This document shows, one piece after another, positions 1 through 64,000 of a stretch of DNA of 64,000 nt; the stretch's first letter is position 1, and the number at the start of each line of letters is the position of its first letter. The position numbers and the translations under genes were made by a program. The stretch comes from Obrimoposthia wandeli (Eukaryota), in assembly GCA_977020255.1 (NCBI GenBank), contig CDROCS010004773.1, positions 1 through 64,000 on the forward strand. Reading direction: 5' to 3'. The notes under the pieces are model-generated. The model saw only the letters and a list, made by a program, of their open reading frames with translations, did not search any database and was not told the DNA's origin.

Positions 1-299
1 TCTGTATAGAACTTACCAAAGTGCTTAGAATTTTATATATATTTTTAGAAATACGTACATAAACGTATTCGATATATTAGTCCACGTGAATTACAAAATG
101 TCACAACTAATTTCTACAGTAGAACAAGTTGTTTTTTTCTCGAATACAAAGAGGCATCAATCAAATACCTTCAGATGCGTGAGATTAGAAACTATATAAC
201 ACTAAGTAGGCCATTCGCTTACAGAACCGTTCTATCGAACTACGTTGGGGCCCTCCGCACATAAGAGGATCTGTACCAAGTTTCGTATGAAAACTAACA
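1..299 (+). repeat. 3' end of the 5' LTR of copy A
   Basis: Aligns with 21870-22173 and 62550-62857 (e.g. gttggggccctccgcacataagaggatctgtaccaagtttcgta), with many indels. Confidence 0.85.
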
Positions 300-5499: not shown

Positions 5500-7433
5500 A
5501 CAATCAACCCAAATATAATCACAACAATGATGATGATGAGTGTTAGTAATGTTCATGGGAATGCAACAGGCATCAGGATTGATAGCACTTTTAGCAGCAT
5601 ACCAAAGAAGATGGGACAAAAGTATTCACTGCTTGACAGCGAAGACTGCCATCCAGAATCACAACCGTCAAAATTAGAAGTTCAAGGTGTTGAAAACTTC
5701 TTTTGTATTATCAGGATGTTGGCCATAAAGTACAAGTAGAAGTGAAAGAATATGTTTCAATCCATTCAAGTTATCACGGAATTCTATTGTGGCCATAGAA
5801 GTTTTATGTCGGAAATCACACTACCACACCGTACAAAGCACATAAGGTTTTGCCGAGAGATTGCAAAGGCATTTCGAACGGGAACGATAGAAGTGAACAA
5901 GAATTACAAACCTGAAGTAAAATTGGGAGTGAGACGATACGAAACAGTCGAGAGTCAGTTAACCGATGGAGCTAGATGGATCTTGTGACGGAGAAACAAA
6001 AAACGTGCGTGGGACCAAAGTATCTGAGATAGTAAAGGATAAAACTTACAAAATCGAATTAAAAACTTGGACCGCCAATTTTGATAAAAGACACAACTAA
6101 TGATGAAGTATCCAGAATGTAAAATGACAATACATCTTGTTTTACGAGCGAATCCACAATTGTCATGAAGTGAATCGAAGCAATGCTCTTAGTATTTTGA
6201 AAGAGATTAATAGTTTAATAAAATAAAGGATTCCTGTATAATAGAGATGGAGAAGGGTTCTGTATAATAAAGTTGGAAAAGGATTGCTAAATGAAACAAG
6301 ACCAATTCCAATGACAAAGACACTTTTCTACACTGTTAATGGCAACATCAATAGAAGAAAGGATTGATATTTATTAAAAAAGAAAACAAAGCGCGATGCC
6401 AGGAATGCTATTTTATGCCTATCCAGGAATAGTTTTGTCCAAAGAAGCAATAGCACTTGGCAGAAACCAAGCTAGGCAAACCAAAAAATGCAGCTACACA
6501 CGTATTTTAATAATAAAATTGATTTCTATTATCATAAAGGATTGATGCAAATGGAACAGATTATATCGGATGATGATCGAAAGAGATTGCCAGCTAAACA
6601 AGAGATCGTAAGAACAAAGTTAGCATTAGCTATTACGAATCAGACATGGTAGCACCATTATTACCCTTGGATGAAGGAGTATTTGCTAAAACCATGGGAG
6701 AAGTATTGTATACTTACAAGTGTAATAAAGTAGAGGTACAGTTGAGAAAAACAGATCGATGTACGAGTGAATTGGCAGTAACGTATAATTTAAAAGATCT
6801 TTTTTGTTGAACCAATCACGAGAATGTTACTTCAAAAGACACTCAACTAAAGAAATCAGCTGCTCTAATATAATGGCACCTGAATATCAGATGACGAATG
6901 ATCTATGGATAACGTTACCTGATCGGAAGCCAACGAAACCCAGCATGATAAGAATGACGAATCTTAAGGTAAATGAAATTCAAGCAGCGGTGTGAAAATA
7001 TGGAGAACGCAGGATTGTACAATGAAAAGATTTAAAAGCGGCGTGGAACGAAATAATGTTTCCAGTAAGAAGAGCCAGAGTACTTACGGAGATGGTACAT
7101 CGAAACGCATTACCGCCAGGAGCTGGATATGCGAATTTCGATATGTTATTATCGCCAAGTCATTTCAAGGAAGCAGCATCAAGGCACTTAGAAAATGTGG
7201 AAATTCTTGTTTTTGGACAATTATTTTCGGGTATCATAGGTATATATATTATAATTAAATTTGTGCAGGTAATTATGGCCCAGGTGTTGTCTACGTATAG
7301 TTTATACAGGATAACAGGAATCACCCATGCAACTTATAATTGGATGTTTTCCATTTTATATCTAATGCACTATCATCACGAGAACGAGTTGCGAGCCCTC
7401 AAGAAGGAACAACACAAACGAGAACCATGGTGA
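5500..7433 (+). pseudogene. env: Env-like fusion glycoprotein resembling chuvirus-type G (frameshifted as read)
   Basis: Fragments SLLDSEDC, EFYCGHRS, LLPLDEGVFAKTMGEVLYTYKCNKVEVQLRKTDRCTSELAVTY, EPITRML..C..MAPEY..W, then a C-terminal hydrophobic block FGQLFSGIIGIYIIIKFVQVI. Family assignment is from motif recall, not a search. Confidence 0.7.
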
Positions 7434-7759
7434 TGCGAGAACCAAGAAACTATCTGAGACGACAACGACGACGATAATGATAGTCCAGGAGTATATGCAA
7501 AGATACCAGGAAAACCAAAGATTCGTTACCAGACAAGGAAGAAGTGGCGTTAAACCTATCCCATCAATGAAGGAACTAAGGAGGAGGAGAAGGAAAGAAG
7601 TTCAAGAGAGGAAAAGCATCGCAATACATAAAGATGATAGGAGAAGGCCTAAAAGAGTGAGCTACAGTGAAATTCCACAAGCAAGAGGAAAAAGACAAAA
7701 AAGATAATTCCAGAAGAATTCTGAAGTCTAGGATATCAAATGAGAATCAGGTAATGCTC

Positions 7760-8085
7760 CACCACAAGTAGCAGTAACATTGAACGGAAGAGAATACCTT
7801 GCCGAAGTTGATACCGGATCTGCAGTATCAGTACTGAGTAAAGAAATCTTCTCATCAAAAGAATTAAGAAGTATGTCTAGAAAACAGACATTTGTTAACG
7901 TGAATGGTACAGATGTAGTGTCGGAAGGAACACTGAAATGTTCATTGAATATCGATGGAAGAAACATTGCAGTTAAATGCTAGAATATTCACAGATTGCG
8001 GAAGTCAGTCATGATTGGGATGGACGTAATACGAATGTTTGAAGGAATAATTATACTACCAAACAACAAGAGTTATAAAGAATGA
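7760..8085 (+). pseudogene. Retropepsin-like aspartic protease 1
   Basis: VTLNGREYLAEVDTGSAVSVL...VNVNG. After one in-frame TAG (7981-7983) the frame continues NIHRLRKSVMIGMDVI (xIGxD motif). Confidence 0.8.
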
Positions 8086-8259
8086 CAGTTCAAAGTGAGA
8101 GAGATAAAAATGTTGAGAGGACCCATAGTCGAAAAAGGAAAAATGCACTACGTTCCGTATGGGAGGTTCAATACCCAGACAGAAAACAGGAAGCGCTAGT
8201 AAAGTCGATACTTCACTACAAAAATGTAAATTTCGGACCACAAGCTACGACGAGGAGAA

Positions 8260-9320
8260 AATAACATATGTGAATTTGTCAGAAAAAGATCCCATGAGAT
8301 TCGAGAGAAAGAGACGAAATATATTAGAACAGTACTATTCAAAGGAATGGCACGTAAAATGGCAAGATCAGGTTTAGAAATGTTAAACGCGACAAGTAGT
8401 TATGGTCATGAGGAAGTAGTACGATGCGTATGGTGTAGAGTAAAGTTCAGAGAATGGGAAAAGAATGAAAAAGCAATGAGACGTCATAAAAGAGATGCAC
8501 CAAATTGTCCATTTCTTTTGAAACTGAAAACGTCAAACGTACCAGAAATCCAAACAGGGAAAAGCACCCGATTTCGATTACAGTGACAGGGATTCCAAAG
8601 GAGAATCAGCTCTAATAACAGGAAGAGTAATAACGAATAGTCAATTGAAGATATATTCGAAGTTATGCGAGAAGTGAACGAATGTGACGAACAATATCGA
8701 GAAGTAACTTTCGAAGATCCAAGACTTAAAAAAATTGGCAAAAAGGGACTTTTTGCTATAAAAAAGGATGGTAAAGACGTAATTAAATGCCACAAGTGTA
8801 AAAAAGAACGAATTATCGACAGATATACTCTTGAGCTACCTAAATTTTACATCATGAATTTTTGCGAATTTTGTACTTTTTAAAAACAAAATAAAGCAAA
8901 AAAGAACAGAAAACAGAATGTATAATCGAATACCAAAATCACACGAAAAGAGATTTTGGCTCAACAAGACACACCGGTAGTGTCATTCGTGAGAAAAGGT
9001 TATATCCAAAAGAAGCAGAAAGAATCAGAGAATTGGTAGAATTAAAAAATAAAAACTACGCGAAACGGATACGGATCGATTTTTGAATTACTGCGAGATA
9101 AAGATGACAGTACAATTGAAACAAAAGAGAAGAGTACATAAATGAATTAGAATACGTACTAGAAAAGATCCGGAATGCGCAGTTTGCATGGTCAACAAAA
9201 TAGAAGTTGCCTTTCTACCATGCGGACATGTAAGAACATGTCGGAGATGTGCGAAATGAAATGGTATCATGTCCAATTTGTCGAAGAATAATAGATCGAC
9301 AAGTGAGAAACATTAGATTT
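8260..9320 (+). pseudogene. Inhibitor of apoptosis (BIR + degenerate BIR + C3HC4 RING)
   Basis: ORF 8347-8586 has the canonical BIR spacing C-x2-C-x16-H-x6-C (CVWC...H KRDAPN C). 8665-8883 has R.VTF...GLF..D.IKCHKC. 9175-9290 gives CAVCMVNKIEVAFLPCGHVRTCRRCA//CPICRRII. Confidence 0.85.
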
Positions 9321-9384
9321 CACTATCCAAACAAAGGGAAGTGGACTGACAGAGTGTAATAATTCGATAAATACAATATACCAT

Positions 9385-10176
9385 ATGGGAAACATAAATG
9401 GAGCACAGCGACCAGCAGCTATCATTAGAGTAAATAATTTAAGAGTAAAAGCCTTAATTGATACAGGTGCTGTAGCTTCGATAGTAAGTGAAGACTGTTT
9501 GACAGAGGAACAGAAACGAACAATGGCAGAACCAGATGAATTCTTGGTATCGGTCAATGGAGACCCTGTAAAAGTGACGGGAATATTACCATGTACATTT
9601 ATAATTGGACGTAATACGATCACTATACCAGTTAGAATCATGAAAGAATGTCCTGAACCTACAATTTTAGGAATGGATGTATTATCACAACTCAAAGGGA
9701 TAAGTATTGATTTACAAGATCCAAGATTGAAGGATAGCACATCAAACAGACAAATAAACCAAATTGATGTAATTATAGAGAATCCTATAAAAATCGGTAA
9801 AAGATCACAATTTCTCATTCAAGGTCACACATTATCAGAAGATAAAGGACCAGTTGTGTTCGAACCATCACGAGATTTCATAGAGAAATACGAATTACCA
9901 GTTGTGAGTACAGTATGCCTGATCGAAAACCACAAAATACCAGTTAGACTGATGAATACAACCAACAATGACATCCTATTATACAGAGGAATGAGGTTGG
10001 GAAAGATAGTACAAATGGAGAATCCCACCGTGTGTGCTATGAAACTCGATAAAGATACGAATGATTACGAAGAAATAGTAATCCAATCAGAAAGACTGAC
10101 AACTAGAGAAAAGAAACAATTACTTGATCTAATACATAAATTTCCGAAAGTAATTGCAAAAATCCATATGACATAG
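9385..10176 (+). CDS. pol: Pol N-terminus: retropepsin 2 plus spacer
   Basis: ALIDTGAVASIV and PTILGMDVL motifs. Confidence 0.9.
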   Translation: MGNINGAQRPAAIIRVNNLRVKALIDTGAVASIVSEDCLTEEQKRTMAEPDEFLVSVNGDPVKVTGILPCTFIIGRNTITIPVRIMKECPEPTILGMDVLSQLKGISIDLQDPRLKDSTSNRQINQIDVIIENPIKIGKRSQFLIQGHTLSEDKGPVVFEPSRDFIEKYELPVVSTVCLIENHKIPVRLMNTTNNDILLYRGMRLGKIVQMENPTVCAMKLDKDTNDYEEIVIQSERLTTREKKQLLDLIHKFPKVIAKIHMT

Positions 10177-10199
10177 GAGAAACACCTGTCATAAAACAT

Positions 10200-10970
10200 A
10201 CAATACCACTGACAGAAGACAAAGTAGTCAGAAGAAGACCATATCGAGTACCATTACAATTACAAGATGAAGTAAAAGTCAGATCGAAGATATGTCTAAA
10301 ACAGAGTAATTAGACCGAGTTTTCGCCATTCTCAGCACCTGTGGTGTTGGTAAAAAAGAAGGATGGGAAAATGAGATTCTGTATAGATTTCAGAGAACTG
10401 AACAAGATCACAAGAAAAGATGTGTATCCATTACTAGAATCGAAGAGATGCTCGATAAATTGGGTAATTCAGATTATTTACGACATTGGATTTGCAGAGT
10501 GGATACTGGCAAATCGAGATAGAGGAAGAGGATAAACACAAAACAGCCTTTTCCTGCGGAGATGGATTGTACGAATGCGAAAAGATGCCATTCGGACTGA
10601 CAGGAGCTCCAGCAACATTTCAGCGTTGCATGAATTTTGTACTCGCATCGTGTGCAAACACGATGGTTTATATTGATGACATAATAATATTTTCGAAAAC
10701 GTTCGAAGAACATTTAAAAAATCTTGAAGTTGTATTTAAAAAAGACTGGAAAACGCTAAATTAAAAGTTAAACCTACAAAATGCGAATGGGCTAAAGAGC
10801 GAGTAACATTTTTAGGACATATAGTATCGAAAGAAGGCATTCGACCTGATCCAGCAAAGATCGAGAAGTAAAAGCATTTAGCGCCAAAGACTGTTAAGGA
10901 GATACAGAGTTTTTGAGGTCTTGCGAATTATTATAGACGATTTGTTGAACATTTTTCAGATATAGCAACA
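10200..10970 (+). pseudogene. pol: Reverse transcriptase (frameshifted as read)
   Basis: [55 protein letters not shown]. Confidence 0.95.
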
Positions 10971-10973
10971 CCA

Positions 10974-11711
10974 TTGAGAAAGTTGACGAGAAAAGATGAG
11001 AAGTTCATATGGGGAGAAGAAGCCCAACAAGCGTTCGAGCATTTAAAAGAAAGACTGATAAAAGCACCAATATTAGCGTTTCCAGATATAAACCGACAAT
11101 TCATACTCATGACAGATGCAAGTAACTATGCTGTAGGAGCAGTATTGGGACAAGAGGATGACGAAGGAAGAGAACACGTCATCGCGTATGCGAGTAGAGG
11201 ATTAAACAGAGCCGAAAGAGGATACTCTGTTATCGAAAAGGAATGTCTAGCCATAGTGTATTCATGTAGACAGTACAGACACTACTTGCTAGGACAAAAA
11301 GTATTCCTATATACAGATCACAAACCACTACAGTTCTTGTATAAACATAGAGATGAGATGAGTAGATTAAACAGATGGTTCCTAAAATTAGCCGAATTCG
11401 ATCTAGAAATCCGTTATAGAACCGGAAAGTCGAACGGCAACGCAGATTGTTTATCGAGATTGACAAATGTAGACGAAAAAGGAAACATAATTCCAGAAGA
11501 AGATGAAACCAATGACCAAAAAGGAGAAGCAAATCTACTGACGATTTTGCTAAAGACGGGTAAAATAGACAAAGAGATCATCAAAGAACAGAAAGAAGAT
11601 GAAGAACTGAGTCTAATCAAAGAATTGTTGGTGAAAGGAGATCTAAACGATGAAATGACGAAAAAATACTCGATAAAAGAAGGAATCTTGTATATAATGT
11701 CGGAAAGATAG
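10974..11711 (+). CDS. pol: RT connection + Ty3/Gypsy RNase H
   Basis: LMTDASNYAVGAVL, YSVIEKECLAIV, YTDHKPL, NGNADCLSR. Confidence 0.95.
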   Translation: MRKLTRKDEKFIWGEEAQQAFEHLKERLIKAPILAFPDINRQFILMTDASNYAVGAVLGQEDDEGREHVIAYASRGLNRAERGYSVIEKECLAIVYSCRQYRHYLLGQKVFLYTDHKPLQFLYKHRDEMSRLNRWFLKLAEFDLEIRYRTGKSNGNADCLSRLTNVDEKGNIIPEEDETNDQKGEANLLTILLKTGKIDKEIIKEQKEDEELSLIKELLVKGDLNDEMTKKYSIKEGILYIMSER

Positions 11712-11731
11712 TAGTAGTAATTCCGAAGTCA

Positions 11732-13264
11732 TTGAAAACAGCAGTGATGATCCAGTATCACGACGGAACACTAGGAGGACATCTGTCAGGGCGAAAGACA
11801 ATAGCCAGAATCAAAGAGAAGTACCATTGGGATGGTATGGAAGACGACATAAAACAATGGTGTAAACAATGTAAAGTATGTTTAACCAGAAAAGACACCG
11901 GAACTCGTACTAAAGTTCCACTGAAACCAATGCCAGTTCCCTTGGCACCAATGGAATTCACAGCGATGGATATATTGGGACCATTGAGAGAATCAAGTAA
12001 AGGAAACAAGTACGTCATAGTATTTACGGATTACATGACGAGATGGGTAGAAGCATATCCCATGCAGAACCAGAAAGCTGAAACAATAGCGCAAATCTTA
12101 GTGGAAGAGATAATATTTCGATACGGAGTGCCCAGAAAGTTATTAACGGATCAAGGTAAGAACTTCACTGGAGAAGTCATAAAAGCAGTATCGAAGATAT
12201 TCGGAATCATGAAGTTACAAACTTCACCATATCACCCACAGACAGATGGTCTGGTAGAAAGGTTTAATAAAACTTTATGTATGATGGTACAATCCTATTG
12301 CTCAGACAAGCAAGAGGATTGGGATAAATATTTACCTTCATGTCTATATGCTTACAGGAATTCAGTTCGAGAGGCGACGGGTCACACACCATTCTATCTG
12401 ATGTATCTCAGACAGAACAATATGCCGATGGATCTGGAGTGGACCGAGCCAACATCTCAGTATCTAGAAACTGAACAATACATTGTCGTCATGAAGGAAA
12501 GATTACAAGATGCTTGGACCAAAGCCGGATTGAAGTTGAAATTCAATCAAGAAGGTTACAAGGAACAATACGACAAAAAAGCAAAACCACATGAATTTAG
12601 AGTCGGAGATCAAGTGATGATATTTTATCCAGTCATCGAACCAGGTCTATCGTTTAAACTTCATAGACCATACAAAGGACCATACAAGGTGATCCAGACA
12701 ACTTCAACAAATTTGAAAGTAATCAACGAAGAGAATCGGAACAAGGAACCGATGATTGTACATGCAAATCGATGCAAATTAGTACCAAATAAAGATAATG
12801 CGTCACGATATGAGTTAAGATCACAGAAATCGAAATCGAATACCAATACCATTAAACTTACACGAATGGTAAGTGATCGGAACTACATAAACATGATGAC
12901 GAGTGGTAGCGAGGAAAAACCAGCAAGAATTGGTATGCTCAGAATGAAGTACCAAGAGGAAAAGGAAGTAATCCGACACATCGCACCACAAGAGATATTA
13001 GAAGAAGACGAAGAGATAATAGTCGTTTTCGAAAAAACACAACCAACAGATGTAGCTAAAGAAGTCATTGTGAAAGATGCACTAACAAACGAATTTCTGT
13101 GCGAACTTAGAGTGTCATACTATGACGGGAATACACTAGTCGCAGCGCTTTATCAAAATTCCAATGTGTTTACGACTGAGAAAGTGATAATCGAAATCAC
13201 ATTGACACCAAACATAGTTGCATGGCAGAACTATGACAGTACTGAAGCAGGACTAGCCAGTTAG
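11732..13264 (+). CDS. pol: Integrase (HHCC, DDE core, GPY) with C-terminal extension
   Basis: YHDGTLGGH...CKQC, AMDILGPL, LLTDQGKNF, TDGLVERFN, PYKGPYKV. Confidence 0.95.
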   Translation: MKTAVMIQYHDGTLGGHLSGRKTIARIKEKYHWDGMEDDIKQWCKQCKVCLTRKDTGTRTKVPLKPMPVPLAPMEFTAMDILGPLRESSKGNKYVIVFTDYMTRWVEAYPMQNQKAETIAQILVEEIIFRYGVPRKLLTDQGKNFTGEVIKAVSKIFGIMKLQTSPYHPQTDGLVERFNKTLCMMVQSYCSDKQEDWDKYLPSCLYAYRNSVREATGHTPFYLMYLRQNNMPMDLEWTEPTSQYLETEQYIVVMKERLQDAWTKAGLKLKFNQEGYKEQYDKKAKPHEFRVGDQVMIFYPVIEPGLSFKLHRPYKGPYKVIQTTSTNLKVINEENRNKEPMIVHANRCKLVPNKDNASRYELRSQKSKSNTNTIKLTRMVSDRNYINMMTSGSEEKPARIGMLRMKYQEEKEVIRHIAPQEILEEDEEIIVVFEKTQPTDVAKEVIVKDALTNEFLCELRVSYYDGNTLVAALYQNSNVFTTEKVIIEITLTPNIVAWQNYDSTEAGLAS

Positions 13265-13342
13265 GAAGAGAAGGAACCGGCCGGTGGTCACATACTGCAT
13301 GGTACACCAAAAAGACTCAAACAAGAATACCACGATGTAATA

Positions 13343-15391: not shown

Positions 15392-16021
15392 GTGCCCAGC
15401 TTTCAATACCAAAGATTGTTAGCGATAGGCTTGTTAAGTTGTCTAATGCCAATAACGGGAGCACAAGAAATAGGCTCCAACCACGGAAATAGTTCCTGGT
15501 TCAACGAAATCCACAACTACACCATACAGTACCATACGCCGGCACTGATGATGCTATTAGTGTTGTTAGGACTAATTGATGTGTGGATCATCCGAAAATG
15601 TCTTCGATCTATGAGAACCGACAGTAAAAGATTTCAGTTTGTAAAGATGAAAAGACCAAATGGACCAACGAACAAAGTGCTTGTGTATCTAGACGAAAGG
15701 ATCGAGGACAACATAGTAAATGAAGCGATATTTTACCCACAAAACAGAATACTGAATCAATTTCGAATAGATTACGAAGCTGACCGACAGCGCACACTTG
15801 ACCGAATATCAACAACATTCGCCGGATGCAAGCGAAGAAAACGAGTTGTAAAGGAAATACAAAAAGATGCTGATACAAAAGGACCAACGTATATATTCGA
15901 CGGCGATGTCATCAAAACACGTGAGTATGGAAGTAAGAGAGTAATAATTGAAACGATGGAAGGACATAAAACATGCTTGTCCGCCAAAAATGGATTCGGA
16001 AAGTTGACGATACAAAGGTAA
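15392..16021 (+). CDS. Putative membrane protein of unknown function (no ATG; possibly part of the polyprotein)
   Basis: 209-codon open frame with a signal-like segment LLAIGLLSCLMPITGA and a TM-like segment ALMMLLVLLGLIDVWII. Confidence 0.5.
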   Translation: MPSFQYQRLLAIGLLSCLMPITGAQEIGSNHGNSSWFNEIHNYTIQYHTPALMMLLVLLGLIDVWIIRKCLRSMRTDSKRFQFVKMKRPNGPTNKVLVYLDERIEDNIVNEAIFYPQNRILNQFRIDYEADRQRTLDRISTTFAGCKRRKRVVKEIQKDADTKGPTYIFDGDVIKTREYGSKRVIIETMEGHKTCLSAKNGFGKLTIQR

Positions 16022-16061
16022 CCCGGTACAGTTAATTATCGGAAGAAATGGAATCGAGGAG

Positions 16062-18080
16062 ATGTCAAAACAACGACAGACAACAAAACGATCCAATCAG
16101 AAACAGATATCTCTCAAACGATTGATAATTAAAACCCTTTGCAAAAGGTCAGTCAAGGCCCTGTGCACCGTTGCACAAGGATTGATCTATGGAGTAGTAA
16201 TTGGATTGGTACTGCAAGCCATGCCAACCAGTAAAGCCGAATTGATGACACTATCTGAATATAATTTACATTTGAGAAATCTAGACAACACCCTAGAAAT
16301 AATCAAGACATCCCACAGTAAAGCCGTGATGATCATGTGTGTAAAAGGATGTCCAGGACGAATGTGTATAGTCCCAGCGACCGAAATGATAACACTTAAT
16401 GGACATTATGGAATTAGTGTTGTCACATGTGAAGACTACATATTTGGACAAACTAAAATAGTGCTTCTCAGTGACATGTCCAACCAAAGTGCACACAAAT
16501 TTAAAATATTAACCATCAAGAGTAAAGGAATACCAGCAGTACGTTACGGTATTCTAGAATTGGTTAATCCGATACTCGCACTGATCATTGGATTTATAAT
16601 ATTAATATTACTCATCTTGTTTTGTTGTACAAAGATAGAGTTGAGATCAAAAAAGAAACGTCATGATCTCGCAAGACGAACAGGTCAAATGAATTTACAA
16701 AAATTCAACACAAGTATACCAAGACCACCCTTCCTAGATGAACCAGCACCAGAGTACCAGCCAACGATATATGAACATATCGAGGAAAGACCGTACTATA
16801 TGAGTAATTTGAGTTGTTTCATTGAAGTTCCTGAGTTTAGGAATCGAACGATCATAGGAATCATGCTGATCATACAAATTACCACTACCAAGGCTAGTTA
16901 TGTGATCATGATCAGTAAATGGAGACAAGATGTAATACGGGCGTTATACATAGAAATCCCTTTATTAAAAACAAATCACGTAGTAGACATTCATCTACAG
17001 ACGTCAGCAACCGACAATATCGATCAGAAATTGTATGTCATCCGACAGGTCAGAATAAAGATCGACCAAAATACACCCGATTACAATTTAATATTATTGT
17101 ATCATGAAAAAGTGTTATACCTACGGATAACAATATCGAAGAGGAAGCGGATTATCCAAAGTATCCGAACAAAGTCATTAATATTGCCTAGAGATGAACG
17201 CATCTGGAAAATTGTCGACAGGATTATGATCACAGGTAGACGACGTAAAGCCGTATGGAATTCCGTTAGGATATTTTTCAGATTGCTAGAAACTGACAAA
17301 GTAACAGTAATGTGTCCCAACCCAGATGGCGGAATCAGATTCGAAATCCAAAGCCAAAAGTTAGTACCACATTTTAACACGGAATGTCTGTGTAATCGAA
17401 TTTCCAGTAATACTACAGAGACCTCGACCATAATCATGATAATAACAGGTGAAATATTCTACATAACTCTAAGATACCAGAACCGTCGATTTCGTAGATC
17501 CGGTATAAGTATCAAACCCAGGAAAATCATTCCCAAAAGGCCAATCCTAGTCAGAAAGAAGGCAAAAGTAAACGAAAGTAAACGCCATTCCAAAAAACCG
17601 ACAGTGATCAGAACAAAGACAGAAGCGAAAGAAAAAGAGCTCAATCCCAGAAACCAAAGTACAATTATTAAGAGGACAAGAGTGAGGGGAACGATCCCAC
17701 TAGATCCCAAACATCATTTCCAATCCAAAATAATAATACCTGTTCCATCAGAAACAAAACACCCAAATCCACGAATTTTTAGAAAATCGGACATAATACA
17801 TGGAAACCGATCAAAACCCATGGAAATGTCATTTGAACCGACAAACAACAAAATGAAGTATGATTATAAATCATCAGACAGCGGAATAACAACGGTCAAT
17901 GCCCTAATTGGAATGGCCGTAGTGTCAACAACAGTGGTTCTATTGACAGTCGTGTGCGTAAAAGGCAGTCAAGTATGCCCAAGAATACGACGAAAATGCG
18001 AAGGATTGCGATGCTGTGACACACCCATCATGGAGGAAGTGGAATTGCGACCCTTACCTCCGCCTTCCATCAAGATATGA
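16062..18080 (+). CDS. 672-aa multi-membrane-segment protein of unknown function
   Basis: Long intact ORF with four hydrophobic segments (GLIYGVVIGLVLQA, ILALIIGFIILILLILFCC, IIGIMLIIQITTTKA, ALIGMAVVSTTVVLLTVVCV). Confidence 0.7.
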   Translation: MSKQRQTTKRSNQKQISLKRLIIKTLCKRSVKALCTVAQGLIYGVVIGLVLQAMPTSKAELMTLSEYNLHLRNLDNTLEIIKTSHSKAVMIMCVKGCPGRMCIVPATEMITLNGHYGISVVTCEDYIFGQTKIVLLSDMSNQSAHKFKILTIKSKGIPAVRYGILELVNPILALIIGFIILILLILFCCTKIELRSKKKRHDLARRTGQMNLQKFNTSIPRPPFLDEPAPEYQPTIYEHIEERPYYMSNLSCFIEVPEFRNRTIIGIMLIIQITTTKASYVIMISKWRQDVIRALYIEIPLLKTNHVVDIHLQTSATDNIDQKLYVIRQVRIKIDQNTPDYNLILLYHEKVLYLRITISKRKRIIQSIRTKSLILPRDERIWKIVDRIMITGRRRKAVWNSVRIFFRLLETDKVTVMCPNPDGGIRFEIQSQKLVPHFNTECLCNRISSNTTETSTIIMIITGEIFYITLRYQNRRFRRSGISIKPRKIIPKRPILVRKKAKVNESKRHSKKPTVIRTKTEAKEKELNPRNQSTIIKRTRVRGTIPLDPKHHFQSKIIIPVPSETKHPNPRIFRKSDIIHGNRSKPMEMSFEPTNNKMKYDYKSSDSGITTVNALIGMAVVSTTVVLLTVVCVKGSQVCPRIRRKCEGLRCCDTPIMEEVELRPLPPPSIKI

Positions 18081-18203
18081 TGAGTCAGAGGAGGTTGTAG
18101 ATAAATTAGTGTGTGAAATATGTAGAAATATCTAGAAGCGATTGTACAAATAGTAGAAATATATAAAACTCATGTAGAAATTAATTCTCATCATGTATTT
18201 AGA

Positions 18204-18503
18204 ATGTCCGAAGAATGCCCAATATGTTTGGAAGATCTAACCGAACGAAGAACAAGACCCGAAACCTGCAACCATTTACACCACGAGGAATGTTTATCGA
18301 CATGGATCAGAACTTATGGACAGTTCGGACATCCAACATACCCTTGTTGCCCTGTATGCAGAAGACAATTCGCAAGATTCATCATGTTAGAACCCAACCA
18401 AGAGGATGTATATGTACAGGTGGTATTCTGTTGGAAGAATTTCGGAGAGTGTTGGTGTTATTACTGTTTGTCAGAACGACAAAATCCGACCACTTTTGTG
18501 TAA
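18204..18503 (+). CDS. RING-H2 protein 1
   Basis: CPIC...CNHLHHEEC...W...CPVCR. Confidence 0.85.
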   Translation: MSEECPICLEDLTERRTRPETCNHLHHEECLSTWIRTYGQFGHPTYPCCPVCRRQFARFIMLEPNQEDVYVQVVFCWKNFGECWCYYCLSERQNPTTFV

Positions 18504-18563
18504 ACATCACACAACCACCAGTCCTCAATCGAGCCCAAATTCAACATCAACCCTCTCACAGTA

Positions 18564-18869
18564 ATGTCTGGAGAATGTTCCATCTGCTACGAGAGCATCG
18601 TGGACTTCTACACCAAGCCCAACAACTGCGACCACCTCTTCCACGTCGAATGCCTCGAGACGTGGATCCCCATCGCAAACAGCAACAATCCCCTCGACTT
18701 CCCAACCTGCCCGATGTGCAGAGCGACCTTCTCAGTACACTACGTGTACAACCAGGACAGCCTCCAAGCAGTGATACCCATCGTACACTGCTGGAAAACC
18801 ATCTGCGATTGCTGGTGCTCGTTCTGCGTGGAGGAGCGAAGCACAGGCCAGCCCAATTCCCAACAATAA
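18564..18869 (+). CDS. RING-H2 protein 2
   Basis: CSIC...CDHLFHVECLETW...CPMCR. Confidence 0.85.
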   Translation: MSGECSICYESIVDFYTKPNNCDHLFHVECLETWIPIANSNNPLDFPTCPMCRATFSVHYVYNQDSLQAVIPIVHCWKTICDCWCSFCVEERSTGQPNSQQ

Positions 18870-19208
18870 TCGAAGGTAACTTTCTGACTTGAACGTGACA
18901 TCATGAACTACCCTGTGTATCGCATACCGCGATAAATTAGCTACCATAATTGTAATCATAATTATATAATCTTGTGAACTGTAAATTGACCATTACCATT
19001 TTTATGTATGATGTTTAACTGAAATTGTAATTATTATACTGAAATTCTAAAAAGACAATTTTTATGCTTAGTGTGAATGCGTAAACATGCCTAAAATCGG
19101 AACAAAACTCGGTAGGATTAAATAACTAAGGATTCGTTTTGAAATAAAATTTAAATTAACGATGAGAACGGTGAACCCCAAATTGAAAGGAGTTATTTTC
19201 TTGTGCAG

Positions 19209-19739
19209 ATGAAGTGTTCTGTATGCATGGAGAAAATTTGGGCGGCATCAGCATCCCCTGTCGGCTGCTGTCACAAATTTCACGAGGCGTGCCTCTATTT
19301 GTGGGCCAAGGCTCGACCCCCTGGCCAAATCACGTGCCCACTGTGCCGGACACCCTTTGGCAAATGGACGCTCCAGTGCCGTGGACGATCCAAGGGCACC
19401 CGATCACCTGCCAGCTGCATTGGTGGCATACACTGCCAGTGCTACGTGTGTCTCGCACGCCGGCGCGACACACAATTGGGCATCCGCGAGCGATGGCGGT
19501 CTAGCCGTGACTGCCATTCATGGTTCCAGGCCAGACGTCTATGGATGGAGAACCATGCGCTGAACGGGCAATATTTCGACCTGTTTGTCGAGAGCCCACA
19601 CCTAACCCGGAGCCAGCAACTACACCTCTACAACGGGGACAGTCCGTCCTTTCCCGATCTACCCCTGGAGCAGGTCCTGCGTTACCTGACCAGTCGGAAT
19701 CAGCCGACAATTACAATCGATCTAACTAACGACAATTGA
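19209..19739 (+). CDS. RING-H2 protein 3 with C-terminal SIM-like motif
   Basis: ATG at 19209. CSVC...CCHKFHEACLYLW...CPLCR, ending TITIDLTNDN. The C-terminal half is conserved in copy B. Confidence 0.88.
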   Translation: MKCSVCMEKIWAASASPVGCCHKFHEACLYLWAKARPPGQITCPLCRTPFGKWTLQCRGRSKGTRSPASCIGGIHCQCYVCLARRRDTQLGIRERWRSSRDCHSWFQARRLWMENHALNGQYFDLFVESPHLTRSQQLHLYNGDSPSFPDLPLEQVLRYLTSRNQPTITIDLTNDN

Positions 19740-20564
19740 TAACGTTAAATCCTTTCCTCCCTTCTTTCCTTCCTAATTCTTAATTTATTCATGTAGATTT
19801 TTTTGTGTATAAGTAATAATGTATGGTTTGAGACTTGCTCCAAATTATACATTATGATTCCCACTAAAAACTGGGGTTTTGAGAATTTTTTTTTGGGCAT
19901 GTTTGATGAGTTGAATGATTGATTTTGTAGGGATGAACCTAAAATCAACAGCCAGAGGCTTGTATAAGTAAAATCGATACGTTCCGGGGACGTAACTTTT
20001 TTGGAACCCCCGAGGTATGTTAGGTTTGAGAATTAAGAAATTAAAATATTTTAGTCGATTAAATACTAAAATAAAAATCCTTGAAAGCAAGGTTGAAAAT
20101 TAAATTAAATATTAATTTTAGATTCAAAATTGAAATTAGTGGAAGTTAGGGTAAAAATTAGGAGGACCACGAAGGTCGTGTATAGTGTAAGATATATATA
20201 AGTTAAATTAATTAACCCAAAAGTGCAACAAAACACATTAATAAAAGAAAAAGGAAACGTCAATTAAAGAACGTCAATTAAGGTAAGCACATTTTCGTGC
20301 AGTGAGTTAAAATTAATTTTCAGCTGTTCAATATTGCTGAATTCCTATAAGCCGGAAGAGCAGGAACACTCAAGAGTTGATTGACAACTCATAGCGAATA
20401 TAAAAGAGTCGCTGACGAAGTGAACACAAACCAGAACGAAAATTAGCTAGGAATCAATATCACCTGAAGTCTACGGAGCGGAATCTTGGTAAGTAGGAAT
20501 TTGGGTTGCATTTATAATCAATAATTTAGATTGCCGCATATAACTGATTAGAAGAAGCTAATTG

Positions 20565-21140
20565 TCAGTTTTAAAAGGAATAATCATCAATTGCCAGTTT
20601 AAAAGGAATAATCATCAATTGCCAGTTTAAAAGGAATAATCATCAATTTCCAGTTTAAAAGGAATAATCGTAAGTTGCCAGTTTTAAAGAATAATCGTTT
20701 ATTGTCAGTTTAAAAGGAATAATCGTAAATTTCCAGTTTTAAAGAATAATCGTTTATTGTCAGTTTAAAAAGAATAATCGTAAATTTCCAGTTTTAAAGA
20801 ATAATCGTTTATTGTCAGTTTAAAAAGAATAATCGTAAATTGCCAGTTTTAAAGAATAATCGTAAATTGACAGTTTTTAAAGAATAATCGTTTATTGTCA
20901 GTTTAAAAGGAATAATCGTAAATTGACAGTTTTTAAAGAATAATCGTTTATTGTCAGTTTAAAAGGAATAATCATCAATTGCCAGTTTAAAAGGAATAAT
21001 CGTAAATTGACAGTTTTTAAAGAATAATCGTTTATTGTCAGTTTAAAAGGAATAATCATAAATTGCCAGTTTTAAAGAATAATCGTTTATTTTCAGTTTA
21101 AAAAGAATAATCGTCAATTGCCAGTTTTAAAAGAATAATC
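20565..21140 (+). repeat. LTR-A minisatellite, ~28-bp unit
   Basis: gtttaaaaggaataatcatcaattgcca and variants. Confidence 0.9.
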
Positions 21141-21260
21141 GCCTATCGATAAACCTTCGAAGACGATCACACCAGTTCGTCAGAACTACATACGGATCCA
21201 GTACCGGATTGACGCAGTCGCAGCTAGTCGCAGCATATCGGTAAGAACACCGACTAGAGC

Positions 21261-21695
21261 ATTCATTGCCCCTAGTTGGCAATTAGGATACATTCATTAC
21301 CCCTTGTTGGTAATTCGAAATTTTAACATATTAACCAGATTCATTGTCCCTAGCTGACAATTAGGATTGCTGTCTCTTTAACCAAATCATTGTCCCTAGT
21401 TGGCAATTAGGATTGTCCATTTTATTCATTGTCCCCAGCGACAATTAGGAATTGTACCAGTTTTTCCCGTAAGATTCATTGTCCCTAGCTGACAATTCGG
21501 TTCACTCATTGTCCCTAGTTGACAATTCGGAACAAATACTCATTGTCCCTAGTTGACAATTCGGTCCACTCATTGTCCCTAGTTGACAATTCGAACCAAC
21601 ACTCATTGTCCTAGTTGACAATTCGGAGTAAGTTTTCATTGTCATCGTTGACAATTAGGTTTTTAGGAGAATCATTGTTCACAGTGGACAATTCG
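21261..21695 (+). repeat. LTR-A array of 12 palindromic ~27-nt cores with variable spacers
   Basis: tcATTGTCcctagytGACAATt(a/c)gg x12, counted by eye. Confidence 0.9.
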
Positions 21696-22249
21696 TGGTT
21701 AATATACAACAGATAGAGTTACGGATTCAAGAAGCTTTATCCACACATAAGAAGTAGAATCGAAGAAATTTAAGAGAGTTGCGTTATAGATTAACCAACC
21801 TAAGAAGAAGAATAACCCTAAAATCTCGATCACCCGAACGTAAAATCGATACGTGGTTCATCCCCACTTCTTGTAGAGACTTACAGAAGTCTTAGGAATT
21901 TTACCATACTTTTTAGAAATACGTACATAAACGTATTGTTGTGTTAGTTACGTGAATTACAAATAAACAATTTCCTACAGTAGAACAAGTTGTTTTTGCA
22001 CCCTTCAGAATAAGAGACATCAAATCAAATACCTTCAGATAGTACAAGAGATTAGGCAACCATAACACTAAGTAGGCCACGACCAACTTTAAGACCTGCT
22101 TCTAATCGAACTCACGTTGGGGCCCTCCGCACATAAGAGGATCTGTACCAAGTTTCGTAATGAAACCCCAACAGCTTAAATATTATTTTTTAGTTTGCCA
22201 AAAGACAAATATGACTCCAAAACAGTTTTCGCGGATAACTTAGCTGTTG

Positions 22250-44511: not shown

Positions 44512-46696
44512 GGTCTAGCCGCGACTGCCATTCATGGTTCCAGGCCAGACGCTTATGGATGGAGAACCATGCGCTGAACGGGCAATATTTTGACCTATTT
44601 GTCGAGAGCCCGCACCTGACCCGGAGCCAGCAACTACACCTCTACAACGGGGACAGTCCGTCCTTTCCAGACCTACCCCTGGAGCAGGTCATGCGTTACC
44701 TAACTAGTCGGAACCAGCCGACAATTACAATCGATCTTACTAACGACAATTGATAACATTACATTCTTTCCTCCCTTCTTTCCTTCCTAATTCCTTACTT
44801 ATCTATGTAGCCATTTTGTGTATAAGTAATAAATTAGTGAATATTTGAGACTCTGTCCAAATGTTCACTTTTTTAGAAAAAACCGAGTTTCTTTTAAAAG
44901 TTTTGGGCATGTTTGATGAATTGAATGACTGATTTTGTAGGGATGGACCTAAAATCAACAGCCAGAGGCTTATAAGAGTAAAATCGATACGTTCCGGGGA
45001 CGTAACTTTTTTGGAACCCCCGAGATATGTTAGATTTAGGAATTGAGAAATTATTAAAAAATTAAATAATTTATACTAAAATAAAATCCTTGAAAGCAAG
45101 GTTGAAAATTAAATATTTAAAATTAAGTTAAAAAATTAGAGGATAAAATCAGGGATAAATATTAATAGGACCACGAAGGTCGTGTGTGATGTGTAGGTAT
45201 ATATAGAAATTTATATCTAACAAAAGGGACCAAAAAAGATATAGCTCTGAAAGTCATTGCAAGAAAAGAAGATTCTAAAATTAAGAGACAATTAAAGTAC
45301 AAGAAACCAAGCCCAAGGGAAAGCAGTCGTTGTGAGTCATTGTGACCTCAGTTTGATATCGATCCAGCAAACACAAATTACGGCAGAAGGTAGATTTGGT
45401 GAAAATATCTGAAATAAGACATTTCCCTAGGATTTGCTGAGAAGGCAATATCGATTTCTCGAACAAACACCTGGACCGCTCCACGGAACTGCCAAGAAGA
45501 CAATAGTGACCCGGCCTTAGTGGACTGCAGTCAAGTAGCGACAACAGGAAAGGTAAACCTATAAATACGGTTGTGAATCTAAAAACAAAAACCAACGGCA
45601 AAAATAATAATTAAATTCAATCCAGTGCAACTCAGTCGGTCGGAAAGCGACATTGTCCAGATTCCAAGTCAAGTTTCCAGTGACTTCGCCATTACAATTA
45701 TCTCAACTCAGTCGGTCGGAAAGTGACATTGTCCAGATTCCAAGTCAAGTTTCCAGTGACTTCACCATTACAAATATCCCGATCTCAGCAGCGGACGTCA
45801 TAAACAGCAGATTAAATAGGTGAGAACGCCGCGAAAAGAAGTAAAGTTGCGTTTTCGAATAATTTCCAAATAATTGTTATTGTTTTAGCAACAAGTAAAG
45901 TTGCGTTTTCAAGTAATTGTTTAGCAACAAGTAAGTTGCGTTTTCAAATAGTTTTCAAATAATTGTTATTGTTTTAGCAACAAGTAAGTTGCGTTTTCAA
46001 ATAGTTTTCAAAGAATTATTATTGTTTTAGCAACAAGTAAGTTGCGTTTTCAAATAGTTTGCAAATAATTGTTATTGTTTTAGCAACAAGTAAGTTGCGT
46101 TTTCAAATAGTTTTCAAATAATTGTTATTGTTTTAGCAACAAGTAAAGTTGCGTTTTCAAATAATTGTTTTAGCAACAAGTAAAAGTTGAGTTTTCAATA
46201 ACTGTCTTGCCTCATTTAGTAGAGTTTTATTATTGGTATAAAATTTCAATTTCCCTCTAAAAGTAAAAGTCTGACAGTAAGGTTAAATTGATTTGGAAGT
46301 ATATAACTTGAGTTTATTTGCGAGTTAGAGGAACAACTCTAAAAACTCGATCACCCTGAACATAAAATCGATACGTGGTTCATCCCCACTTGCGTAGAGA
46401 CTTACAGAAGTCTTAGGAAGTTTTACTATACTTTTTAGAAATACGTACGTAAACGTATTGTTGTGTTTTAGTTTCGTGAGTTACCAATAAACGATTTCCT
46501 ACATTAGAACACGTTGTTTTTGAACCCTTCAGATTAAGAGACGACAAACCAAACACCTTCAGAGAAGCAATAGAGATAGGCAAACATAACACTAAGTAGG
46601 CCACGACCAACTTTAAGACCTGCTTCTATTCGAACTCACGTTGGGGCCCTCCGTACATAAGAGGATCTGTACAAGTTTCGTATAGAAACCCCAACA
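44512..46696 (+). mobile_element. Copy B: 3' fragment of the Gypsy family (RING3 C-terminus, 3' UTR, LTR 45028-46696)
   Basis: 44512-45030 is homologous to 19499-20020. LTR TGTTAGA...CCCAACA, with a different interior. Confidence 0.92.
45840..46200 (+). repeat. LTR-B 53-bp minisatellite (plus a 76-bp duplication at 45628-45775)
   Basis: agcaacaag recurs at 45976, 46029 and 46082. Confidence 0.9.
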
Positions 46697-55840: not shown

Positions 55841-56295
55841 ATGCAGGAATATATCATAGATTTTGAGGCTTTTATTAACAAAAATGGGGATTATGTTATA
55901 AAAGAATTATGTATTATGGATGTATGCAACGTTTTTTATCCATTGCATTTCATATTTCAAATATCTATCCCGTTTAGGAGTTGAGATTATAAGAAAAAAT
56001 TTACTAATTTATATCTACTAATTACTTTCATTTATTAAAATGGAAAGAAGGACATAAGGCTTTTTGTGAAATATGTATTTTCGATACAATAAAATCTAAT
56101 TTTGATATAGAAAATGGAATTTTTTATGTTTTAGATGAAATGGATAGCAAAAAGTATAAGACTTTAAAAAAATATTTTCCCAAATTAAGGTTGAATACTT
56201 TAAATATTTTACGTGATCATATATTAAAAATTCCACGAAATATTTGCTGTCCATATCGTAATCATGGTGACCATTGCGCATATAAAAATGTTTAA
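55841..56295 (+). pseudogene. Small Polinton-type DEDD/exonuclease-like ORF, disrupted
   Basis: MQEYIIDFEAF...YVIKELCI..HFIF, then after a shift FHLLKWKEG...CPYRNHGDHCAYKNV*. Confidence 0.55.
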
Positions 56296-58191: not shown

Positions 58192-58199
58192 GTTTATTT

Positions 58200-60341: not shown

Positions 60342-61254
60342 TGCATATACTCTTTCATTTTTAATATTGTTTATATTATCATAGAAGTTTTCTTATTGAA
60401 ATGTACAATGTTAGAGCGATTGTTGATGAAATACAAAAATTAATTAATGCATATTTGGCTATAATTTTATTTATTTATGTACGATTTCTAAATTCTCGAA
60501 TAACGTGTGATCTAACCAATATTTCAATGTTATCTCTTGTTATATCATTATTTTTTAATTCTGATAAAATTTCTTTACCCCTGATTTTTCCAGAAAATAT
60601 TTCGTCGGCAAGACGATCCACTCCATTGTCTCTATTTATAGTATTGTTAGGATTGAGAATTAAGAAATTTAAATATTTTAGTCGATTAAATACTAAAATA
60701 AAAATCCTTGAAAGCAAGGTTGAAAATTAAATTAAAATATTAATTTTAGTTTTAGAATTAAAATTAGTGGAATTTAGGGTAAAAATTAGGAGGACCACGA
60801 AGGTCGTGTATTATGCGAAAATGTATAAAAGTTAAATTAATTAACCCAAAAGGGACAATTTAGAAGTAATTAAGAAAAAACGGTTAATTAAAAACGTCAA
60901 TCAAGAGACGTCAAGGTAAGCACATTGTAAGTGCAATAAGATTTATTGATTTTAGATATCAATCAAGAAACCATTCCCAACGTTATTCTCAGCTGTCCAT
61001 TGAGTGACAGATCCCCGTTCTCAGCAGTAAGCACATTTGTAAGTGAAGTGAGTTTAGTCCAATTTTCAGACTATAAGATCAGCTGTCATTGATTGACAGG
61101 ACTGCCCCTATATAAGGCAGAGTAAACTACAGAGGAAACAACAACGAAATCGACTACGAGAAATCAACTGGGCGGAGGACCAAGGTGAATTTTGGTGGTT
61201 TGGGTCAGTGTTAAAGTAATTTGTTTTTAGATCAATTGAATTAATTGAAAGTCC

Positions 61255-61800
61255 AAAAAGTCAAAATATATCTAAGTTAAAGTATATTCAAGTCAACGTA
61301 TATCCAAGTCAAAGTATATCCAAGTCAAAGTATATCCGAGTTAAAATATATCTAAGTTAAAGTATATTCAAGTCAACGTATATCCAGTCAACGTATATCC
61401 AAGTCAAAGTATATCCAAGTCAAAGTATATCCGAGTTAAAATATATTTAAGTTAAAGTATATTCAAGTCAACGTATATCCAGTCAAAATATATCTAAGTT
61501 AAAGTATATTCAAGTCAACGTATATCAAGTCAACGTATATCCAAGTCAAAGTATATCCAAGTCAAAGTATATCCAAGTCAAAATATATCTAAGTTAAAGT
61601 ATATTCAAGTCAACGTATATCCAGTCAAAATATATCTAAGTCAAAGTATATTCAAGCCAACGTATATCCAAGTCAAAGTATATCCAAGTCAAAGTATATC
61701 CGAGTCAAAATATATCTAAGTTAAAGTATATTCAAGTCAACGTATATCCAAGTCAAAGTATATCCAAGTCAAAATATATTCAAGTCAAAGTGTACTCAAG
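61255..61800 (+). repeat. LTR-C 16-bp minisatellite
   Basis: ccaagtcaaagtatat units with higher-order variants. Confidence 0.9.
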
Positions 61801-61940
61801 CGTCCAAAGAGTCAAGTCCAAGCGTATTCAAACGAAATCAAACCTCACACCAGGGATAATCTTCAGATTCCGAAAGACCTACGGATCCGCATCGGAAGTC
61901 CCACTAGTTGCCGTAACTGGTAAGAACACCCACTAAACTA

Positions 61941-62378
61941 TTCATTGCCCCTAGTTGGCAATTAGGATACTGTCATTACCCCTTGTTGGTAATTCTAAAT
62001 TTTAAACTAATACACAGATTCATTGCCCCTAGCCGGCAATTAGGACAATCCGACTCTTTAACAAAATCATTGCCCCTAGTTGGTAATTAAGATCTGACAT
62101 TTATTCATTGTCCCCAGCGACAATTAGGAATCCTACCCAGACGCTTTACCCGTAAGATTCATTGTCCCTAGCTGACAATTAGGTTCATTCATTGTCCCTA
62201 GTTGACAATTCGGATAAATACTCATTGTCCCTAGTAGACAATTCGGTAAGACTCATTGTCCCTAGCTGACAATTCGGTTCGCTCATTGTCCATAGTTGAC
62301 AATTAGGAGTAAGTTTTTCATTGTCATCTTGACAATTAGGTTTTTAGGAAACCCATTGTTTACAGTAGACAATTCGGG
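61941..62378 (+). repeat. LTR-C 12-copy palindromic array
   Basis: Collinear with 21261-21695. Confidence 0.9.
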
Positions 62379-62865
62379 TCAAACACACACAGATAGATTT
62401 AAGGAACCAAGAAACTTTATCTAGAGATAAGAAGTAGGAGCGAAGAAATTTAAGAGAGTTGCGTTATAGATTAACCAACCTGAGTAAGAAGACTAAACCT
62501 AAAAAACTTAATCACCTGAACGTAAAATCGATACGTGGTTCATCCCCACTTCTTGTAGAGACTTACAGAAGTCCTTTAGGAATTTTATCATACTTTTTAG
62601 AAATACGTACATAAACGTATTGTTGTGTTAGTTACGTGAATTACGAATAAACAATTTCCTACATTAGAACAAGTTGTTTTTACACCCTTCAGACTAAGAG
62701 ACATCAAATCAAATACCTTCAGATAGTACAAGAGATTAGGCAACCATAAAACTAAGTAGGCCACGACCAACTTTAAGACCTGCTTCTAATCGAACTCACA
62801 TTGGGGCCCTCCGCACTCAAGAGGCTCTATACCAAGTTTCGTATAGAAACCCCAACATATTAAAG

Positions 62866-62884
62866 TGGTGCCCCGAGTGAGGAT
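62866..62884 (+). promoter_or_regulatory. Primer binding site, elongator tRNA-Met type
   Basis: TGGTGCCCCGAGTGAGGAT matches 18/19 to the recalled reverse complement of vertebrate elongator tRNA-Met (TGGTGCCCCGTGTGAGGAT). Confidence 0.75.
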
Positions 62885-62912
62885 AGCTCGTCGGACACAG
62901 CGAATTCACGTA

Positions 62913-63960: not shown

Positions 63961-64000
63961 TCAGTAAATTTTATAAGTGAGAATCGAGTGGATTGATACT

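Follow-up and report, generated by a model that had tools for sequence, protein, structure and literature searches.

A giant Ty3/gypsy element of an animal, equipped with an env-like gene, carries as its last genes ahead of the 3' LTR three that encode small RING-H2 proteins (RING1, RING2 and RING3) and that, judging from their sequences, rather likely form an accessory E3-ligase cassette acting on host proteins. Each of them carries, past the RING, four additional cysteines at near-fixed spacing (the Cys4 motif), and RING3 ends in a tail whose last residues resemble a SUMO-interaction motif (SIM). The window referred to below is the whole stretch of DNA that was analysed, 64 kb in length, and all features lie on its forward strand.

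Three RING-H2 genes with a shared Cys4 motif

RING1 (18204..18503, 99 aa), RING2 (18564..18869, 101 aa) and RING3 (19209..19739, 176 aa) are intact ORFs, each with its own ATG and stop, and follow the other cargo ORFs of the element. All three belong to the RING-H2 domain family, with Pfam zf-RING_2 scores of 37.5, 36.7 and 29.4 bits, respectively (cut-off, 27.3 bits), and with a C3H2C3 ligand set (C-x2-C-xn-C-x-H-x2-H-x2-C-xn-C-x2-C, eight ligands) that is complete in 3/3. The helix Trp, the CP pair and the Arg following the last Cys are also present in 3/3, the Trp and the Pro of CP lying at what we take to be E2-contact positions and the Arg at what presumably is the linchpin position. Furthermore, the three proteins have in common the spacing C-x2-C-x13-C with a Pro three residues ahead of the third Cys, and the sequence CPxCRxxF, followed by x19 and the first Cys of the Cys4 motif. 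This motif reads C-x6-C-x-C-x2-C in RING1 (18429..18467; C76, C83, C85 and C88) and in RING2 (18789..18827; C76, C83, C85 and C88, with an extra C81), and C-x5-C-x-C-x2-C in RING3 (19416..19451; C70, C76, C78 and C81, with H75 adjoining). A hairpin is predicted in RING1 as well, and RING3 has a tail of ~95 aa that belongs to no known family. A DNA pattern for the RING end plus the Cys4 motif matches exactly the three RING genes in the window, and nothing in 100 shuffles. Together with the ORFs, the Pfam scores and the ligands, this bears out the first-pass annotation in its description of three RING-H2 genes with a post-RING Cys motif.

The genes had also been called paralogous, which stands for RING1 and RING2 (36% identity, with alignable DNA), RING3 being tied to them by spacing and motif only. 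Identity among the three proteins is 30-36%, the residues beside the motif cysteines vary freely, and RING1 and RING2, which share only 37% of their third codon positions, yet keep all 12 Cys/His. In a RING-only BLAST, RING3 ranks 68th-95th among the matches of RING1 and RING2, and a RING-only tree of 229 stretches neither shows nor excludes a single clade of RING1-3. RING1 and RING2 are also poor in lysine, with 1 and 2 residues, respectively (3 in 200 aa); the corresponding share is 8.2% for the element (p=4e-5) and 5.8% for other RING stretches (p=0.002). Such a scarcity would suit ligases that avoid self-ubiquitination. A 225-aa ORF at 18215-18892 that overlaps RING1 and RING2 was rejected as a shadow frame, having no real Pfam match and variants that are 1 synonymous versus 5 non-synonymous.

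A RING domain already binds two zinc ions and four cysteines are the usual number for one, so that an extra site at the Cys4 motif would be a third zinc site, which is plausible from the residues present. In the structural model of RING2, the only one of the three proteins modelled (mean pLDDT 84), aa 1-70 reach a pLDDT of 88-97, and the model has a RING fold and a beta-hairpin at aa 58-74, with a weak Cys4 part (pLDDT about 61-62). The top PDB matches of this model are RING/U-box domains (best Foldseek E 0.02, best Z 7.2), which are general RING domains, none of them a specific match, and the best viral fold matches are the baculovirus IE2/PE38, alphaherpesvirus ICP0-type and iridovirus RINGs. 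None of the fold matches of the whole model extends over the weakly modelled Cys4 part.

The carrier element

The element measures ~22 kb (an internal region of about 19.7 kb plus two LTRs of 2.16 kb), and both its LTRs and the order protease, RT, RNase H and integrase of its pol place it within Ty3/gypsy. Of the 5' LTR, whose start lies before the window, only the end is present (1..299); it is gap-rich, with 41 gap columns against the 3' LTR (20018..22173; TGTT...AACA ends and internal tandem repeats) versus 2-9 in the other three LTR pairs. The region ahead of env is probably gag-like, and the stop-free fragments of its broken 2.1-5.5 kb part gave no Pfam match for gag. The env-like gene (5963..7433), located upstream of pol, is in pieces and belongs to the Monjiviricetes (chuvirus/gB-type) fusion family, with matches to PF24664 in three distinct fragments free of stops (E down to 6e-12). 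It is followed, within 7744..9359, by a first aspartic-protease fragment, a BIR domain (8230-8586) and a broken IAP-type RING-HC (9163-9359) that was recognised by eye, its Pfam match being weak, and that shows no similarity to RING1-3 (hhalign probability 0.4, for a 42-aa fragment). The pol gene, also in pieces, occupies 9307..13264 according to Pfam. Downstream of it, the segment 13343..15378 comprises an ORF that combines a dual-specificity phosphatase (PF00782, E 2e-34) with a repeated domain of no known family, and after this ORF a second stretch resembling a phosphatase, recognised by eye, which a frame change near 15205-15211 interrupts. Two accessory ORFs of 191 aa and 672 aa (15446..18080), with hydrophobic segments and no Pfam family, precede the RING genes. 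The first 11 kb of the element are in pieces, possibly owing to poor local sequence or to an older, decayed or chimeric 5' half.

Further LTRs start at 45028 and 60645. The former belongs to a second, 5'-truncated copy (44512..46696) consisting of the RING3 tail (aa 98-176), a spacer and the LTR, and the latter to a third copy (60645..64000) with its 5' LTR (60645-62857) and leader repeats, which extends past the end of the window. A primer-binding-site-like sequence starts at 62866 in this third copy and, in our view, resembles an elongator tRNA-Met site; it was sought in the 7 supplements of one paper, with no match there. Three sequencing runs from one sample, which may be the one that this DNA came from, with ~59,000-64,000 variant contigs each, cover all 30 bins of 17400-20010, and therefore the cassette belongs to a many-copy family; the Burro-like element is high-copy in its host. 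Part of the RING cassette was found in a marine metagenome as well, whereas no RNA data set was among those listed as containing it, which says nothing about expression. The summed contig depth, which cannot rank genes, is lower over RING3 than over RING1 and RING2, and run X5 has no cover past 19159. The closest integrases, at 62-63%, lie on contigs of 2.5-3.7 kb, and the integrase query returned no related viral locus.

Relatives and composition of the RING genes

Homologue searches yielded no candidate for RING2, 8 candidates for RING3 (none at E<=0.01) and no usable match in the Atlas for aa 52-176 of RING3. The profile search that had been proposed as a check on the first-pass annotation retrieved 4354 proteins at E<=0.001, the best 150 of which are generic RINGs; none of these 150 has C-x-C-x2-C within 50 residues past the RING, i.e., the search revealed no second case of RING plus motif. 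Likewise, the Cys4 motif matched no Pfam family and none of the other RINGs examined. A DNA-pattern scan of viral sequences gave 33 loci, 0 of them in frame without a stop, and a scan of metagenomes gave at least 118 loci, 17 of which are in frame but, among the matches listed, lack a RING upstream; this latter scan covered only the TGC start codon and the listed matches, so that absence is not established by it. Taken over all searches, the RING+Cys4 combination occurs elsewhere in 0/150 of the best HMM matches and in 0/151 pattern loci (for the metagenome part, among the matches listed).

The RING itself is less isolated. Its x13 spacing, Pro and Phe, found in 3/3 of RING1-3, occur together in 8/209 RING stretches among the matches, including cestode RING-RING proteins, one of them with a PHD finger and thus PHRF1-like. 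The nearest Atlas clusters among those displayed are mostly small viral RINGs. The RING core resembles both PHRF1-like host RINGs and small viral RINGs. No PHD finger was called in the C-terminal parts of the RING proteins (RING1 and RING2 being too short for one), and RING1-3, lacking the PHD, are not members of PHRF1.

This resemblance bears on the origin of the genes, as does their composition. Whole-gene GC is 0.42 in RING1, 0.54 in RING2 and 0.57 in RING3, with GC3 values of 0.40, 0.78 and 0.63, respectively, and the 300-nt windows of the element have a mean GC of 0.377 (sd 0.025, max 0.443). The 60-nt samples on which three GC-rich genes had been postulated (55% at 18601 and 62% at 19321, versus 37% in the integrase at 12181) are correct, but only RING2 and RING3 are GC-rich; RING1 is not, because its value falls within the range of the element's windows. 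The further claim of a separate acquisition holds only in part: composition varies from gene to gene, and the RING+hairpin core resembles that of a host family, the PHRF1-like proteins. The differing GC3 values suggest that a staggered gain or exchange of genes would fit better than a single capture.

Selection and polymorphism

Over the 80 codons in which RING3 (aa 98-176) can be compared with the second copy at 44512, synonymous changes number 13, against a single non-synonymous one (dS 0.30, dN 0.005, omega 0.018, p=3e-8), and the other five frames contain stops. Purifying selection on the RING3 tail is strong, as measured in one copy pair and for the tail only, the RINGs and the Cys4 motif lying outside the compared region; with such an excess of synonymous changes, a neutral passenger is ruled out for this tail. 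Variants among sister copies, counted in 40 of 212 variant rows, give synonymous/non-synonymous ratios of 0/3 in RING1 (p=1), 1/2 in RING2 (p=0.47) and 5/5 in RING3 (p=0.06), with no selection signal on RING1 or RING2 in these rows; the 16 changes leave the zinc ligands and the motif cysteines all unaltered. Single-base indels are found in a minority of copies in all three genes. The first-pass annotation had named as its counter-case a motif shared with a common host RING family in genes that are recent neutral captures; the motif searches and the omega of the RING3 tail both point away from it.

Splice-acceptor-like sites and the RING3 tail

Each RING gene is preceded by a splice-acceptor-like site, a sequence pattern that ends 1 nt before the ATG in RING1 (18188..18202), 2 nt before it in RING2 (18547..18561) and directly before it in RING3 (19194..19208). 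A pyrimidine-rich YAG located 0-2 nt ahead of the ATG is found at 3/3 RING starts versus 3/442 other ATGs on the plus strand of the element, under thresholds chosen after the sites had been seen; by a loose rule (YAG alone), 51/445 ATGs qualify. A donor-like AAG/GTAAG is present in 2/3 LTRs, namely that at 60645 and the 3' LTR at 20018, where it lies about 260 nt in (20280-20289). These patterns suggest a separate spliced mRNA per RING gene or, in a host capable of it, the trans-splicing of a leader.

RING3 ends in ITIDLTNDN, with the SIM-like core IDLT (19716..19727, aa 170-173) three residues ahead of the stop. In the second copy its residues are the same and the Leu codon has a synonymous change. 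IDLT arises in 0.3% of RING3 shuffles, although the motif was spotted by eye and this figure ignores other motifs that might have been noticed; among the best 150 of the 4354 profile matches it occurs in 0/150. A scan for [IV]DLT cores, with other SIM types outside it, found one in RING3 and none in RING1 or RING2. PIAS1 and RNF4 have (I/V)DLT as the core of their SIMs (PMC4907222, PMC3901395, PMC9071424), single RNF4 SIMs bind SUMO weakly (PMC3901395), and what characterises a SUMO-targeted ligase, RNF4 or the herpesvirus ICP0 for instance, is the union of a RING with a SIM (PMC4907222, PMC3901395). The SIM-like motif of RING3 is a single one, has few acidic neighbours and is preceded by a threonine where PIAS has valine. 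RING3 is built like a SUMO-targeted ligase, for which it is a candidate, with putative SUMO binding. Neither the SIM-like tail nor the acceptor-like sites had been noticed in the first reading of this DNA.

Proposed function and alternative explanations

The expanded E3-ligase cassette that had been proposed fits the sequence, given the eight ligands, Trp and Arg kept in 3/3 and the RING fold of the RING2 model; the ligase activity itself is a predicted one. As a mechanism, each RING gene would be expressed from its own spliced mRNA, in which the donor of the LTR leader (or a trans-spliced leader) is joined to the acceptor before the ATG; the RING would then bind host E2~ubiquitin, and a surface for substrates or partners would be provided by the hairpin together with the Cys4 motif, at which a third zinc ion is probably bound. 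These three steps are, taken together, likely. Which would the substrates be? Host proteins that restrain the element are the favoured, if less assured, candidates, in line with the BIR and phosphatase cargo. More tentatively, RING3 might pick SUMO-modified targets via its C-terminal IDLT, as ICP0 or RNF4 do, and may strip SUMO-dependent silencing factors off the element's chromatin, a proposal made because, in Drosophila, the piRNA-guided silencing of transposons depends on SUMO (bioRxiv 10.1101/533091). The most ambitious version of this idea, i.e., RING3 as a transposon-encoded SUMO-targeted ligase, accompanied by two sister enzymes that share with it a new RING-H2+Cys4 family, each made from a spliced subgenomic mRNA as in complex retroviruses and removing SUMO-dependent silencing in an ICP0-like, independently evolved manner, is doubtful as a whole.

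An alternative that leaves the genes functional would have them serve the element's own cycle or act as decoys: they may tune the turnover or sorting of Gag, Env or other cargo, or bind E2 or SUMO without destroying defence proteins. Both the selection on the RING3 tail and the acceptor-like sites indicate that the genes are used but not on what they act, no substrate domain can be recognised in RING1 or RING2, and membrane-type ORFs lie just upstream of the RING genes, all of which this alternative accommodates. It is nonetheless unlikely, since the tail of RING3, being SIM-like, speaks for targets that are SUMOylated and mostly nuclear, and BIR and phosphatase cargo is host-directed in known viruses.

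A second alternative concerns the Cys4 motif, which could be what is left, in collapsed form, of a PHD finger or second RING located past the hairpin in PHRF1-like ancestors, serving for packing or being dispensable, in proteins that may still be ligases. In the cestode relatives the second Cys-rich domain starts ~24 residues past the conserved Phe, versus 19 in RING1-3, and the low confidence of the model over the Cys4 region would agree with a remnant. This is improbable in view of the fact that four cysteines, the usual set for one zinc ion, have been retained at near-fixed spacing by three so dissimilar proteins whose neighbouring residues are free to differ.

Finally, a recent neutral capture, in which pieces of a host (PHRF1-like) RING gene would be passengers and the acceptor-like sites left-over host intron ends, could draw on the sharply deviating composition of RING2 and RING3, on the x13/Pro/Phe signature of the cestode RING-RING(-PHD) proteins and on the mostly non-synonymous polymorphisms of RING1 and RING2 (40 of 212 variant rows), but is very improbable given the omega of the RING3 tail among element copies, the three frames that stay intact in a copy whose 5' half is broken, the retention of all Cys/His by RING1 and RING2 despite their divergence at third codon positions, and a Cys4 motif that is missing from the host-like relatives examined.

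With the Cys4 extension, RING1-3 would represent a new sub-architecture among RING proteins. Should RING3 prove to be a SUMO-targeted ligase, the transposon would have in it a direct means of countering piRNA/heterochromatin silencing that depends on SUMO; without ligase or SUMO activity, the three genes would be nothing more than the usual cargo of a Burro-like element. In giant LTR elements of invertebrates, apoptosis- and ubiquitin-related cargo is already known and its role is open, its function being called "worthy of experimental confirmation" in PMC6431247. RING1-3 are small, intact and easy to express, which makes that question testable. The literature searched contains no report of stand-alone RING genes or of a SUMO-targeted ligase in an LTR retrotransposon, with subscription papers mostly outside the search and annotations in Repbase or in bioRxiv supplements that may list them.

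Comparison with known systems

With the PHRF1-like RING(-RING)-PHD proteins (cestode P0114, P0004 and P0025), RING1-3 share C-x2-C-x13-C with Pro at -3, the Phe past the last Cys pair and the hairpin that follows it, and in the cestode proteins, too, the RING that comes first is of the H2 type. However, those proteins continue into a PHD finger or second RING, whereas RING1-3 have neither and carry C-x5/6-C-x-C-x2-C instead, in tiny, element-borne genes with no evident intron within the ORF. Nearest by features and fold are the small stand-alone RINGs of large DNA viruses (Nucleocytoviricota, baculovirus IE2/PE38 and iridovirus), similar in size and with an N-terminal RING plus hairpin; unlike in RING1-3, the Cys4 motif is present in none of those examined.

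The RINGs of ICP0 and RNF4 are C3HC4, whereas RING3 is a RING-H2 protein of 176 aa encoded by a retrotransposon. What RING3 has in common with them, as a match of sequence only, is the presence of a RING and an (I/V)DLT-type SIM in one protein (PMC4907222 and PMC3901395), and the best viral fold matches of the RING2 model include RINGs of the ICP0 type. RNF4 has several SIMs for SUMO-chain avidity, and RING3 differs from it in having one.

As for the element, the GAG-ENV-POL errantiviruses, an order reported with an HSV/gB-type env from Nematoda, Bryozoa and Platyhelminthes, have the same Ty3/gypsy pol, chuvirus/gB-type env upstream of pol and LTRs (PMC13524379); the present element differs by ~6.5 kb of cargo after the integrase, and the main text of that source makes no mention of BIR, ubiquitin, phosphatase, zinc or RING. 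Nor are RING, ubiquitin or BIR mentioned for the rotifer extra ORFs (PMC5408684). In the planarian Burro/GYPSM1, env lies between gag and pol and a BIR domain is present, Burro elements carrying apoptosis and ubiquitin/SUMO-like cargo (PMC6431247). The BCL2, MATH, ankyrin, AAA and SUMO-like domains of the Burro cargo were not detected in the scanned fragments of the present element, whose 5' half is in pieces. Burro exceeds 30 kb, and the phosphatase and three stand-alone RING-H2 genes downstream of the integrase have no equivalent in the part of that source available. Being likewise a giant Ty3/gypsy element with a BIR, an env related to mononegavirus fusion proteins and cargo tied to apoptosis and ubiquitin, the present element would resemble a shorter Burro, with 2.2-kb LTRs, the likeness residing in gene layout and cargo.

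Sequence surroundings of the RING-H2 genes

The stretch between the second and third RING-H2 genes of the element (RING2 and RING3) carries a splice-donor-like site (18874-18882), 7 nt past the RING2 stop codon, and an AATAAA (19143-19148) about 60 nt upstream of the acceptor-like site of RING3; judging from the sequence, this stretch may possibly contain an intron, or else an operon-like 3' end. The first gene, RING1, encodes a protein whose C-terminal residues are T-T-F-V (18489-18503), an end that is compatible with class I PDZ binding and that could easily have arisen by chance.

Throughout all six frames of the window, the pattern [IV]DLT, to which the SUMO-interaction-motif-like core IDLT of RING3 belongs, occurs three times, i.e., in the two RING3 copies and in an acidic, low-complexity ORF (53780-54325, +; core at 53861) to which no Pfam family was assigned. 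This ORF belongs to a group of short ORFs with higher GC content (53.8-55.5 kb), which lies beside a Polinton/adintovirus-like remnant (56000-60730). The remnant is recognised by an rve integrase (58614-59210, E 3e-12) together with A32-like ATPase and protein-X-like matches, both of them weak, and the third LTR copy begins (60645) at its edge. There is also a 398-aa ORF (43270-44514, -) with no Pfam match, which by eye looks like the C-terminal zinc-knuckle/restriction-like endonuclease part of an R2-type non-LTR element, and which directly adjoins the truncated RING3 copy at 44512.

Variation among copies and cargo behind the integrase

The three LTRs (20018-22173, 45028-46696 and 60645-62857) have their ends in common and differ in their central tandem arrays, built of 28/55-nt, 53/37-nt and 16-nt units, which points to the existence of subfamilies; a 49-nt tandem array is also present in the leaders of two element copies. 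CpG is hardly depleted (observed/expected 0.94 in the whole window, 0.96 in the element and 0.79 in 23-42 kb), and this suggests that the elements carry little DNA methylation.

Within the element, two aspartic-protease domains (7744-7983 and 9307-10176) lie on either side of the BIR/IAP-type RING region. Further downstream, the integrase ORF and the following ORF share the same frame, with a single stop (13262-13264) between them, and both contain an unnamed domain (12899-14059; 27-30% identity among its copies), of which the former has one copy at its end and the latter has two copies. The proteins with the nearest integrases (P0151-P0154 and P0157; 50-63% identity) have long C-terminal extensions as well, and in P0153 a protease domain is found downstream of the integrase, which indicates that relatives likewise append cargo behind this enzyme.
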